From a virus (lineage: Duplodnaviria > Heunggongvirae > Uroviricota > Caudoviricetes): DNA of 7,222 nt. The notes below the pieces were generated by a model. It was not told the origin of the DNA. It worked only from the letters and a program-made list of their open reading frames with translations, and made no database searches. A program made the position numbers and the translations under genes. The stretch covers positions 1-7,222 of the IMG/VR virus record IMGVR_UViG_2582580934_000004; one strand, given 5' to 3'. Shown here piece by piece: positions 700 through 7,222 of this stretch. Within the stretch, counting starts at the first letter, position 1. Each line of letters starts with the position of its first letter.

Positions 700-1089
700 A
701 TGATTGACGCTCATGACTTCACAAGATGGGTGCGCACACAGGACACCCGTCTGGCTCCCGTTCTTCAGGGATTATTTGATCTCTACATCCGTGGTCGTGA
801 CAACAGAGCACGCACCACAAAACCGGAGAATGCAGACACCCTTTATTTCACAGTAGACGACTGCTACCGCGTGGACTTCACACCACACGGGCTGGCGTTG
901 CACTGCCTGACACCACACGGCGAATCACTACTGGCGTATTACGACTCCCCGGCCTCCGTATTTGCGGCAATGCTGGCGCATCGCACTGCTGGCGGGTGTG
1001 CCTCGCTGAGTGAATACACCGCTGAATTTGACCGCCTTTCCGCCATAACCGCCTTTCCGCCCTCTTCTCGCAGGAGTGGCAGCGCGTGA
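700..1089 (+). CDS. Hypothetical protein (129 aa) immediately upstream of the replication gene
   Basis: ATG at 700 with aagag 8 nt upstream; stop at 1087-1089, 14 nt before the gpA ATG at 1103. The 3' end contains a 14-bp direct repeat (see 1031-1064). Confidence 0.45.
   Translation: MIDAHDFTRWVRTQDTRLAPVLQGLFDLYIRGRDNRARTTKPENADTLYFTVDDCYRVDFTPHGLALHCLTPHGESLLAYYDSPASVFAAMLAHRTAGGCASLSEYTAEFDRLSAITAFPPSSRRSGSA
1031..1064 (+). repeat. Direct repeat accgcctttccgcc x2 with a 17-bp period (14/17 identity between the two 17-bp units)
   Basis: Exact 14-mer at 1031-1044 and 1048-1061, separated by ata. Lies in the last codons of ORF 700-1089. Confidence 0.85.
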
Positions 1090-1471
1090 CGGGATACCAG
1101 CCATGAGTGCGTTTGCATGGAGCTGGAATGAACCACGACCAGCTATTGATCCGGCCAGATTTACGGAGCGCAGGCAGGAAACTGAAACCGACCTGCAACG
1201 CGCCATCCGTTACTACCTTGAGGCGGACAAAAGGGCACAGGAAGAACAGGAAGCGAAGGAAGAAGCCTTTTTCGCACAATCCGCCATGGGTAAAAAACTC
1301 ATGGCATCCCTTGAGGAAGCCGGACAGCGTGAAAAGCTGGCTCAGAGCATCATCAGTAAGCGCCGGGCAACAGAACAAGACCCGGTAGCCCGTGCCTTTG
1401 CCACACTGAAGGCGCTTCCCGTTTATCTGCGAGAACCTCTGAGCCGCCACCTCTCTTTCCTGCGCAAAAAA

Positions 1472-1523
1472 CAGGAAGCCGATCGCCGGAAAGGAAGCAG
1501 GAAGCCGATCGTCAGAAAGGCAA
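1472..1523 (+). repeat. Imperfect tandem duplication, 2 x 26 bp (22/26 identical)
   Basis: caggaagccgatcg is exact at 1472-1485 and 1498-1511. Deleting one 26-bp unit joins gpA frame 2 to frame 1, giving ...LRKKQEADRQKGKKSWQAERY... Confidence 0.85.
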
Positions 1524-2895
1524 AAAGAGCTGGCAGGCGGAACGCTATGCACGCGGAACCCTGCGCAAAATATTCGAACGTCTGGACCGCACCGACAGCC
1601 GCTGGCTGACACCGGGTTATCGCTCCCTTGCCGGACGCGAACGCCTGGATGATTTGCTTTACCTGCCGCAGCTCAACAAGCACCAGATACAGACGCTGGC
1701 CACCATGACGGCGGCGATGTTCAGCAGCACCTTCGAAAAACTCTGCGATGGCTTTGGCGCGACCGATGGTGAGCTGACCATGGAGGTGGCACTGAAGGCG
1801 TATCAGATGCTGGCCCGCATGGCGTTACACCTGCACGCCATGCCTCCACATTATGACGCACTGACAACAGACAAAGACCGCAAGAACGAACCGGACACGG
1901 AACTGCTGCCGGGCGCAATCCTCCGCCTGACCTGTGCGGAATGGTGGAAACGCAAACTGTGGCTGTTACGTTGCGAGTGGCGGGAAGAACAACTCCGCGC
2001 CGCCTGTCTGGTTTCCAGAAAAACATCGCCCTATCTGAGCCAGGACGCGTTAAGCGAGTTTCGCGCACAGCGCGAGAAAACACGCGATTTCCTGAAAAGT
2101 TTCATGCTGGAAAACGAAGACGGGTTCACGATTGATCTCGAGACGGTGTATTACGCGGGAGTAAGTAACCCGGTTCACCGTAAGGCAGAAATGATGGCCA
2201 CCATGAAGGGGCTGGAACTTCTGGCCGAAGCCCGTGGCGACAGAGCGGTGTTTCTGACTGTCACCTGCCCGTCAAAATACCACGCAACAACGGAGAACGG
2301 TCATCCGAATCCCAAATGGAACGGGGCCACTATGCGCGACTCCAGCGATTACCTGGTTAACACGTTTTTTGCGGCGGTCCGCAAAAAACTGAACCGCGAC
2401 GGCCTGCGCTGGTATGGCATCCGCACGGTGGAGCCTCACCATGACGGCACCGTGCACTGGCATATGATGGTCTTTGCTCATCCGGAAGAAATCGACAGCA
2501 TCGTGGCCATCACCCGCGATATTGCCATTCAGGAAGACCGCCACGAGCTGGGCAATGATATTACTCCGCGCTTTAAGGTGGAGTATGTCGACGGCTCAAA
2601 AGGCACACCAACCAGCTACATCGCCACCTACATCGGAAAGAACCTGGACAGCCGCGCCGTGGATGGCATCGACCCAAAAACGGGCAAGCCACGCGTTGAC
2701 CACGAAACCGGAAAATCAATGGCCGAGAGCGTGGAACGCGCCATCGGCTGGGCGCGCCTTCACCGGGTCCGCCAGTTCCAGTTCTTTGGCATTCCCTCCC
2801 GTCAGGTGTGGCGTGAACTCCGCCGCCTTGCCAGCCAGATGGCACGCAACCCGGAAGGCCCGCAACGGCTGAAGGATGACGCAATGGATGCGGTA

Positions 2896-2927
2896 CTCGC
2901 TGCCGCTGATTCTTGCTGCCGCTGATG
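2896..2927 (+). repeat. Imperfect tandem duplication, 2 x 16 bp (14/16 identical)
   Basis: gctgccgctgat is exact at 2899-2910 and 2915-2926. Deleting one unit joins frame 1 to frame 2, giving ...DAVLAAADAGCFATYIEKQ... Confidence 0.85.
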
Positions 2928-3239
2928 CCGGGTGTTTTGCCACCTACATTGAAAAACAGGGTGGCGTACTTGTTCCGCGCAAGGACTACCTGATTCGCAC
3001 AGCCTACGACCTCGCAGATGAGCTGAACGATTACGGCGAACAGAGTGTACAGATTTACGGGATCTGGTCGCCACTCATCGGGGAATCCTCCCGTGTGTGC
3101 ACGCACCCGGATAACTGGAAGCTGGTAAGACGTAAACCGGAAGCGGAAGACAGCACCCACGAAAATGGTTTTGACCTTCAGGGCGGCCCTGCCGCCCCTT
3201 GGACTCGTGGCAATAACTGTCCCCGTGTACAGGAAACGG

Positions 3240-3297
3240 ACAACAACGGGACAGAACAGCCGGAAGAAACAACAACGGGACAGAACAGCCGAAAGAA
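3240..3297 (+). repeat. Imperfect tandem duplication, 2 x 29 bp (28/29 identical)
   Basis: acaacaacgggacagaacagccg at 3240-3262 and 3269-3291. Deleting one unit joins gpA frame 2 to frame 1. Confidence 0.85.
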
Positions 3298-3940
3298 CGG
3301 CCAGCACCGTGGCCGCAGCTCCCTGACGGCGTTGAAGTGAACGAATGGATGCGCTCACTGAAACGGCACGAACGCCGGGCGCTGATGCGTTCGCTTCGTG
3401 ACAAACAGGCAAAAAACAGCAGTGATGAAATGCAGAGCTGGACACAGAGCCGCAAACAGCAGCGGCCTTTGCCTGATAACCACGAATTACTCGCTAAAGA
3501 ATGGCGGGAATCTGCCGAATCTCTCGGCCTGCATATCGGTGAACAGCAGATGCAGCACCTGTTACGGGGCGGCAGCCTGTACGTTGACGGCAGCATCATT
3601 GCACCGCAGGGATTTGAAATTGTACGCAAACCGGATACCCGCCCGGACAGCCGGATCACGCAGCTCTGGCAGCGCCTGAGCCGTAACCACGGCGTAAGCA
3701 GCACGGAGATCCGCCATAACCCGGTCGCCAGCTATCTGGAACAGCTGGGGGCATCAGACCCCGAAGCCGCCGCACGCCTGGCATCCACACTTCAGCAGGA
3801 CCAGAACACCATGAAAACACCCGTTACCGTGCTTTCTGACATGCTGCGCGCCATCCGCGACGCAGAGCACGCACAGAGAATCAGTGAAACCACTGAACGC
3901 GCCCGCCGCAAAGCAGACCTGCTGCGGGGTGGCCTGACCA

Positions 3941-4060
3941 GTGGAAACAAAAAACAGACAGAAACGGGATTCACAAATCCCGTAAATGAGCAAAAAACGC
4001 GCCGCGATATATGAAGCGCGCATAAAACAGGCAAAAACGGGATTTCAGAATCCCGTAAAC
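3941..4060 (+). promoter_or_regulatory. parC-like region: two related ~40-bp units, each with a 20-bp hairpin palindrome, directly upstream of the parM-like gene
   Basis: acgggatt-caca-aatcccgt at 3964-3983 and acgggatt-tcag-aatcccgt at 4037-4056 (perfect 8-bp arms, 73 bp apart), each preceded by an aaaacag..aaa motif. The first lies inside the last codons of the gpA frame. AAGGA RBS at 4078-4082. Confidence 0.4.
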
Positions 4061-4090
4061 GATTAATTAATCAACATAAGGAAAAGCGAC

Positions 4091-5073
4091 ATGAAAATTT
4101 GTATCGACGACGGCTCCACCAACATCAAGCTGGCATGGACTGAGAACGGCGAACGCCGCAACGCCATCAGCCCGAACAGCTTCAAGTCGGAATGGTCTGC
4201 GCCGTTCGGTGGTACGCAGCCCGCGAACTACATGCTTGATGGCGTGCGCTATGGTTTTGATCCGGTCAGCGATCGCTTTGTCCAGACGACCGACACGCAA
4301 TACCAGTACAGCGATGTGAATGTCATTGCCATTCATCACGCGCTGGTCAAATCAGGCATCACGCCACAGGAGGTGGATGTGGTTGTCACCCTGCCACTGA
4401 GCGAGTATTTCGACACAAACGCACAGCCGGACATGGCCAACATCAGCCGCAAAAAAGCGAACGTATCAACCGCAAAAAAGCGAACGTTATGCGCCCGGTG
4501 GAGTACCAGAACGGCGAAGCATTCACTATCCGTAACGTACGGGTTATGCCTGAATCCATTCCGGCTGGCTTTAAAGCACTGGCTGACATGAGTCCGTTTG
4601 AATCCCTGCTGATTGTGGATTTGGGCGGAACCACGCTGGATGTGGCAAAGGTTCAGGGGCAACTGGCAGGTATCAGCCAGGTGTTTTGCGATCCACACGT
4701 AGGCGTTTCTCTGATGGCCAATGCCGTACTGTCGGTGATGGCCACTAACGGTATGCGCACCAGTCACCACATCGCCAATACCATTATCGAACATCGCCAT
4801 GATGAAGCCTGGCTGCGCCAGCACATCCACAATGACGCGCATTACGACAGCCTGATGGCGGTTATTCGTGAAAAGGAAGAAACACTGAAACAACGAGTGA
4901 TCCGCGCGCTGGCGGGTTTTTCGGGTTACGGGCGGGTGATGGTTGTCGGTGGCGGGGCGGAGATTGTGGCACCCGCTATCCGCGAAGCCTGCGGAGTTAA
5001 TGCGACTTTCATCGCGGACGGGGTGCCACAGTTTGCTCTGGTTAATGGGCTGTACGCAATGGACAAGGAGTAA
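4091..5073 (+). pseudogene. parM: ParM/StbA-like actin-family segregation ATPase, split by one frameshift
   Basis: Translation matches plasmid R1 ParM at recalled conserved blocks: ICIDDGSTNIKLAW, ISPNSFK, YSDVNVIAIHHAL, RKKANV, VMPESIPAG, LIVDLGGTTLD, VMVVGGGAEI, FALVNGLYAMDKE. Frame 2 (4091 to about 4464) switches to frame 1 (about 4465-5073) at a 23-bp tandem duplication. Without the duplication the product is 319 aa, about the size of R1 ParM. Confidence 0.8.
4442..4487 (+). repeat. Imperfect tandem duplication, 2 x 23 bp (22/23 identical)
   Basis: atcagccgcaaaaaagcgaacgt / atcaaccgcaaaaaagcgaacgt. Deleting one unit gives ...ANISRKKANVMRPVEYQNGEAFTIRNVRVMPESIP..., colinear with ParM. Confidence 0.9.
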
Positions 5074-6130: not shown

Positions 6131-6160
6131 AAACGCCCTCTTCCAGGGCGTTTATTTCAA
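6131..6160 (+). terminator. Rho-independent terminator ending the + strand cargo operon
   Basis: Perfect 9-bp stem aaacgccct (6131-6139) / agggcgttt (6145-6153), 5-nt loop, then atttcaa; begins 11 nt after the stop at 6120. Confidence 0.7.
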
Positions 6161-6190
6161 TGCACAATAGTGCACAAATTTGCACAATTT
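6161..6190. repeat. Three helically phased TGCACAA repeats (10-bp period) followed by a T-run
   Basis: TGCACAA at 6161-6167, 6171-6177 and 6181-6187; a fourth copy at 6253-6259. Confidence 0.8.
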
Positions 6191-6230
6191 TTTTGAACGA
6201 CTTTTTGCCCTTCCGGCCCGCGTGGCAGTT

Positions 6231-6249: not shown

Positions 6250-6310
6250 GCGTGCACAAAAAAACGCGCTTTTTCTGCGCGCAGGTGACGGGGGAACAGC
6301 CCGCGTTTCA

Positions 6311-6318
6311 GGGGGGGG
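6311..6318. repeat. Homopolymeric G8 tract adjacent to a small hairpin (gggaa-tagcg-ttccc)
   Basis: Eight consecutive G at 6311-6318 in non-coding DNA; gggaa (6316-6320) pairs with ttccc (6326-6330). Confidence 0.85.
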
Positions 6319-6586: not shown

Positions 6587-6636
6587 GCGAAGCAGCAGAC
6601 AAGCGAAGCGCGTCAGGATGTGGGCTGGGTGTCCAG

Positions 6637-6710
6637 CAGTGCATAAGGGTTAAAGCGGATCACCTCTATCTAACAGTGCGTAAGGGTTAAAGCGGATCAC
6701 CTCTTCGCCA
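6637..6710. repeat. Imperfect tandem duplication with a 37-bp period across the 3' end of the portal gene
   Basis: cagtgcataagggttaaagcggatcacctct (6637-6667) against cagtgcgtaagggttaaagcggatcacctct (6674-6704), 30/31 identical. The - strand stop codon (6650-6652) lies inside the first copy. Confidence 0.85.
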
Positions 6711-7222
6711 AGCCAGTCATTGATGTGCTTCATGGCCTCCATGACGGGCATCAGCTCGTTAATTGCGTAAACCCGCGCGGCCTTCTCCACATCACCAAAC
6801 GCACTTTTTTCACCCGGCATCGCCCCCATCAGTTGCGGCGGAACGCGGTGCGCAGCCAGTACATCATCACGGGATGCCGCCTTAACATTCATGAACTCAT
6901 CCTTTGCGGTGATCTGCTGGAACGGCAAAATTTGCACACCTTCTTTGCCCCCGTTGGGCGCATGAATGAGCACGTTTTTAAACGCACCACCACCACGTGC
7001 ACCCTGTAACGTTTCTTTCAGGGAGTCCATGCTTTCGCGGTTTACCTGCGCTGCACCGATGTAGATGATGCACCCGGCGTGGGATCCGTTGTCGTAGTAC
7101 AGTTTTCTGAACATGTCCGCCGAATGAGAAAGGCTGGCTGAGAGTAATGCGCCAAGATATTCCGGCATGCCGTAGATTTCCTGGTTAATATCCGGATTCA
7201 TCAGGTGGCACACTTTGCCAGG
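6650..7222 (-). CDS. Portal protein (P2 gpQ-like), 3' portion; the 5' end lies beyond the window
   Basis: The - strand translation (NPDINQEIYGMPEYL...YYDNGSHAG...SRDDVLAAHRVPPQLMG...FGDVEKAARV...NDWLGEEVIRF) resembles P2-family portal proteins as recalled. It is convergent with gpA, as expected for the A-cos-Q arrangement. The C-terminal codons run through the 37-bp duplication. Confidence 0.7.
   Translation of the reverse strand, partial: PGKVCHLMNPDINQEIYGMPEYLGALLSASLSHSADMFRKLYYDNGSHAGCIIYIGAAQVNRESMDSLKETLQGARGGGAFKNVLIHAPNGGKEGVQILPFQQITAKDEFMNVKAASRDDVLAAHRVPPQLMGAMPGEKSAFGDVEKAARVYAINELMPVMEAMKHINDWLGEEVIRFNPYALLDRGDPL

Follow-up and report, generated by a model that had tools for sequence, protein, structure and literature searches.

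The gpA-type replication gene on a short piece of Escherichia coli prophage DNA cannot be read in any single frame as deposited, and the question that this locus raises is whether the interruptions belong to a decaying prophage or to the deposited sequence only. The preliminary description of this DNA had located three frameshifts in gpA, each at an imperfect tandem duplication, and had concluded that the replication initiator is non-functional and the prophage defective, unless the duplications were artefacts of assembly or sequencing. The window that we analysed, meaning the whole stretch of 7,222 bp, corresponds to contig AYJZ01000063.1 in its entirety, from the draft assembly GCA_000511465.1, and both of its ends lie inside genes.

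The DNA comes from the early region of an E. coli prophage of the P88-like type (Xuanwuvirus, P2-family). An isrK-like RNA and a C4 antisense RNA are followed by a derepression gene (397-627), a 129-aa ORF (700-1089, plus strand), gpA (1103-4014, plus strand), parM (4091-5073, plus strand) and a partner partition gene, after which come a ClpX-type zinc-finger gene, a 112-aa ORF and the 3' part of a portal gene on the minus strand (6650-7222). Of 5,426 complete E. coli genomes, 1,782 share this arrangement, as does phage P88, and the nearest complete genomes are about 97.8% identical to the window over the aligned columns. The two RNAs lie upstream of the derepression gene on the plus strand, and both scored above the Rfam gathering score: the isrK Hfq-binding RNA (RF01394, 64.1 bits) at 126-200 and the C4 antisense RNA (RF01695, 73.9 bits) at 236-340. 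A 17-nt stretch inside the C4 match (296-312) is missing from E. coli NCTC9022 and unchanged in E. coli O145 RM8988, and its presence in the latter marks it as natural variation.

The identification of the interrupted gene as a P2-type gpA was borne out. The translation of the ORF at 1654-2925 matches the profile PF05840 (Phage_GPA) over its full length (positions 1-321 of 321) with E=3e-131 and 437.7 bits, the cut-off being 31.4 bits, and it carries an HUH motif (GTVHWHMMVF) and a double-tyrosine motif (SYIATYIGK), which are taken to be catalytic, as in the P2 A protein. The latter is encoded in part by a 12-bp tandem repeat at 2612-2635 on the plus strand (CCAGCTACATCG / CCACCTACATCG, giving SYIATYIG), which is in frame, is also present in the references and is not among the anomalous duplications. 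As deposited, gpA falls into four pieces, the ORFs 1103-1609, 1654-2925, 2876-3340 and 3337-4014, which run in frames 2, 1, 2 and 1 just as had been described, and the change of frame at each junction equals the length of the duplicated unit modulo 3. When one copy was deleted at each of the three sites, a continuous protein of 946 aa was obtained, 925 residues of which are identical to the gpA of NCTC9022 (WP_071813453.1), the intact homologue from a resident P88-like prophage, which is also 946 aa long. Within the P2 gpA family the gene is unremarkable; frame continuity alone fails as deposited.

The three gpA duplications proved real features of the deposited sequence; as a set, they were incomplete. 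Global alignment to NCTC9022 revealed six head-to-tail duplications in the window, three in gpA and three elsewhere (1030-1063, 4442-4487 and 6631-6704), affecting four different genes. Inside gpA (plus strand), a 26-bp unit at 1469-1520 causes the first frameshift (frame 2 to 1); its copies are identical at 23 of 26 positions in this register and at 22 of 26 in the register of the preliminary description, 1472-1523. The second shift (frame 1 to 2) lies at a 16-bp unit at 2895-2926 (14/16 identical), and the third (frame 2 to 1) at a 29-bp unit at 3240-3297 (28/29 identical); the lengths, places and identities given earlier for these two were confirmed. Upstream of gpA, a 17-bp unit (GACCGCCTTTCCGCCAT / AACCGCCTTTCCGCCCT, 15/17 identical) at 1030-1063 on the plus strand puts the 3' end of the 129-aa ORF out of frame. 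A 23-bp unit at 4442-4487 (plus strand, 22/23 identical) splits parM into two ORFs, 4091-4591 and 4489-5073, and a 37-bp unit at 6631-6704 (33/37 identical) lies at the 3' end of the portal gene. K-mers that span the six junctions include CGGAAAGGAAGCAGGAAGC, GCTGATTCTTGCTGCC, GGAAGAAACAACAACGGG, GCGAACGTATCAACCGC, CACCTCTATCTAACAGTG and CGCCATAACCGCCTT. The copies adjoin without a seam within the one contig, which is free of N runs.

The window, eight homologous reference loci (75 kb) and shuffled windows were scanned for head-to-tail repeats with a period of 14-45 and at least 85% identity. The scan returned six repeats in the window, none in the 75 kb of the eight loci and 0.03 per shuffled window; the duplications are far beyond what chance would produce. 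Deletion of either copy at all six sites brought every gene back to exactly its reference length: ParM became 319 aa long, the 129-aa ORF was complete and the C-terminus of the portal protein was identical to the reference. Besides the six duplications, no stop codons, 1-bp indels, IS elements or deletions were found in the coding sequence of the contig. Selection on the reading frame was also considered, as all six unit lengths are non-multiples of 3; the probability of this by chance is about 0.09, which is uninformative.

Several other features of the sequence were recorded alongside. Two 42-nt direct repeats on the plus strand (3948-3989 and 4021-4062), 81% identical and 73 nt apart, straddle the end of gpA just upstream of parM, and each contains the 20-nt palindrome ACGGGATT..AATCCCGT; the pair is a possible parC-like centromere for partition by ParM. 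In the non-coding stretch that separates the 112-aa ORF from the portal gene, a terminator-like hairpin (6131-6153) is directly followed by three TGCACAA units with 10-bp spacing and an overlapping palindrome (6161-6191, plus strand). A run of eight G at 6304-6311 (plus strand, non-coding) is one base longer than in NCTC9022 and represents the contig's only 1-bp indel relative to that strain outside the first 400 bases.

In intact homologues each unit is present only once; for gpA, this comparison had been named as a check in the preliminary description. Four of the duplications were tested by local queries, and none of the best matches among about 1,300 complete E. coli genomes carried any of them; the matching records spanned 426 positions against a query of 471, and 508 against a query of 551. 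The best whole-window matches in complete E. coli genomes likewise fell short of the window's length by 166 bp. Patterns specific to the junctions were scanned in one collection each (GTDB species representatives, JGI metagenomes or IMG/VR) and returned nothing related. Junction 21-mers did hit four MAG contigs and a soil metagenome contig, all of them unrelated; these hits had no similarity in their flanks and were rejected as chance matches. The six frameshifted protein products occur in this single contig only among about 15 billion catalogued proteins.

The differences between the copies are informative about their origin. With the six sites pooled, copy 1 and copy 2 differ at 13 of 148 positions (8.8%), whereas only 7 of the 7,222 bases of the window are private, that is, missing from a panel of 30 related loci (about 0.1%). 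The differences therefore cannot postdate the duplications. At 8 of the 13 differing positions both alleles are present in a panel of eight references, which had been picked for overall similarity only; the chance expectation is 0.035 per site, giving P ~2e-9. Once targeted IMG/VR scans were added, both bases were known as single-copy alleles of other prophages at 12 of the 13 positions. Entire copies match entire natural alleles in phase, and many of the changes between them are synonymous.

At the 1469 site, copy 1 is exactly the single-copy allele of the panel loci L006, L008, L009, L013 and L014, and copy 2 is exactly that of L002, L004, L011 and L016. The copies at 2895 read GTA CTC and GTT CTT, respectively, which are synonymous natural alleles. 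At 3240, GAA of copy 1 is the common allele, and AAA of copy 2, which is unusual, was found in single copy in four IMG/VR contigs; at 4442, AGC of copy 1 is present in single copy in seven IMG/VR contigs and AAC of copy 2 in most references. The copies at 6631 differ only synonymously in the portal frame (TAT/TAC, CTG/TTA, GAC/GAT), the allele of copy 1 occurring in 11 IMG/VR contigs and that of copy 2 in L001, L004, L007, L008 and L009. At the 1030 site the A/C difference is a natural polymorphism (L007), and the G at 1030 is the sole exception among the 13 differing bases, as no other sequence with it was found when IMG/VR was scanned.

The flanks of the duplications allowed us to describe the geometry of the events. 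After removal of copy 1 at the 2895 site, L013 and the window showed 0 mismatches in 416 positions, and after removal of copy 2 at the 4442 site L015 and the window showed 0 in 423; around the 1469 site the left and right flanks alike resemble L002/L004. Copy 1 is the foreign patch at 1469 and 2895, whereas at 3240 it is copy 2. Each event thus consists of one haplotype with an extra tandem patch that carries the alternative allele. At all six sites the microhomology at the junction is 0-1 nt, so that the joins are essentially blunt. A simple chimera, with haplotype A to the left and haplotype B to the right of a junction, was rejected, as the segments between junctions have no donor with 100% identity (the best reach 98.1% for 1495-2911 and 99.2% for 3269-4464) and the flanks on the two sides belong to the same haplotype. 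The proposal that the duplication at the portal site is a trace of the insertion of a 525-bp moron was also rejected, since L002, L005 and L006, the loci in which this moron is seen, have only one copy of the portal 3' end. The unit lengths of 16-37 bp and the positions of the SNPs give no fixed k-mer signature that would name an assembler.

Compared with the panel L001-L031, the window as a whole is a fine mosaic of population haplotypes, for which a copying model required about 25 donor switches and only 7 private bases; this shows very frequent recombination among P88-like prophages. The region between the partition genes and the portal gene is a hotspot of cargo exchange, where other strains carry AAA ATPase/S8 peptidase, XF1762, DUF551 or the 525-bp moron.

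Taken together, these observations favour the explanation that had been held only as a fallback, an artefact of assembly or sequencing in what is an entire 7.2-kb draft contig. With a probability of roughly 0.8, the duplications are absent from the real genome and are false "heterotype" duplications of a collapsed or mixed draft assembly. Six lesions of one type, made of natural alleles and with flanks of the same haplotype, point to two templates rather than decay. Two templates would thus have contributed to the deposited sequence, and we infer that both were present among the reads. In such a case, the sample would have held two near-identical versions of the P88-like prophage region, stemming either from two co-resident prophages that were collapsed into one contig or from a mixed culture. 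Patches in which the versions differ may have been left unmerged by the software, so that both alleles were laid end to end, possibly when a gap was closed or when contig ends were joined across an unresolved bubble. Each such join would add 16-37 bp, never a multiple of three, and four genes would consequently seem frameshifted. The shortness of the contig and its two ends within genes likewise agree with a collapsed repeat. Some features count against an artefact. From two haplotypes, a plain de Bruijn graph cannot make these junctions, as the junction k-mers are in neither allele, and a later joining or gap-closing step must be assumed. The junctions are seamless and no N run separates the copies, the G at 1030 was found in no other sequence and the unit lengths carry no fixed k-mer signature. 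In addition, duplications inside one contig are rarely mis-assemblies, since a route through both copies must have been available in the reads (Kelley & Salzberg 2010, PMC2864568).

The preliminary description had preferred a defective, decaying prophage, and this part of it did not survive the comparison. Under ordinary decay, slipped-strand events would have produced tandem duplications in gpA that later diverged by point mutation. The frameshifts do stand in the sequence as deposited and, taken at face value, would do away with gpA, ParM and the small ORF; however, the copies are 8.8% diverged on a contig with about 0.1% private changes, and their differences coincide with natural alleles (P ~2e-9) and are often synonymous. 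Furthermore, decay of a prophage should leave lesions of several types, whereas the six duplications are the sole lesions and all belong to one rare type, their ends lack microhomology and all relatives have a single copy. We regard this history as scarcely credible. A process at the level of reads has somewhat more in its favour, although we still hold it to be highly improbable. Chimeric molecules formed by template switching between two haplotypes during PCR or library preparation, and carried into the consensus, would likewise need two templates and would give blunt, non-biological junctions. Chimeric reads are, however, rare and randomly placed and should not win the consensus at six sites, and the six joins all lie exactly on patches where the haplotypes differ, which points to a systematic software step.

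It is also conceivable, if unlikely, that the duplications are real and stem from exchange in vivo, in a cell with two P88-like prophages that differed slightly. Template switching or short-patch homeologous recombination would then have copied short stretches from the second prophage and inserted them in tandem next to their counterparts, which inactivated the prophage. Such an exchange would account for the alternative natural allele in each extra copy and for junctions that are seamless within the contig. This gpA was found at 1,541 places in 1,377 E. coli genomes, and about a tenth of the carriers have two or three copies. Nevertheless, flanks of the same haplotype would demand two switches within 16-37 nt per event, six times in 7 kb, and the microhomology at the junctions is only 0-1 nt, whereas in E. 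coli both template switching and slipped misalignment usually rely on short direct repeats. Moreover, neither about 1,300 related E. coli genomes nor any of the collections scanned yielded such a junction, and no other type of lesion accompanies the duplications. Were they real, the duplications would imply a mutational process not yet described in bacteria, the blunt tandem insertion of short stretches copied from a co-resident, slightly different prophage. Such a process would be a form of ssDNA patch insertion or of repeated homeologous double template switching and would silence the prophage; we consider it very improbable.

If the duplications are indeed false joins of two prophage versions, the "defective prophage" and the four pseudogenes do not exist, and the underlying gpA, parM and portal genes are most likely intact. 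This would also be a warning that frameshift pseudogenes in short draft bacterial contigs can be false duplications of collapsed repeats. The signature that would betray them can be read without access to the reads: imperfect head-to-tail copies whose differences are population alleles, often synonymous, with flanks of one haplotype on both sides, blunt junctions and no other lesions. If, on the other hand, the duplications are real, they would document an unusual recombination process between co-resident prophages.

Comparison with known systems separates the gene from its lesions. The gene itself agrees with the P2 gpA family and with Escherichia phage P88 in the full-length PF05840 match, the HUH and double-tyrosine motifs and the gene order, and the sole difference from intact members is that its frame is interrupted three times as deposited. 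The lesions resemble slipped-strand duplications of pseudogenes in being short, head-to-tail and frame-shifting, but real slipped-strand duplications begin identical and are bounded by short direct repeats, whereas the copies in the window are 8.8% apart at positions of population alleles and their ends share 0-1 nt. Thus, they fail the hallmarks of that class, namely boundary repeats and a divergence consistent with age. A closer likeness is found in assemblies of diploid organisms, for which duplicated overlapping contigs have been documented (Kelley & Salzberg 2010, PMC2864568), and in vertebrate assemblies, which contain false heterotype duplications, some of them joined when a gap was wrongly filled (Ko et al. 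2022, PMC9516828). In those cases, as here, two allelic versions stand adjacent instead of being merged, the differences lie only at allelic sites, relatives are single-copy and genes are falsely disrupted or duplicated. The published examples come from heterozygous diploid genomes, their length usually ranges from hundreds of bp to many kb, and as a rule a gap separates the copies, whereas here we deal with a bacterial draft in which two prophage copies or a mixed culture would supply the two "haplotypes", with units of 16-37 bp and with seamless joins inside one contig; a closed gap would leave no trace, and the missing gap therefore does not exclude a false heterotype duplication. On every feature that can be judged from the sequence, the lesions fit false duplications induced by haplotype differences.
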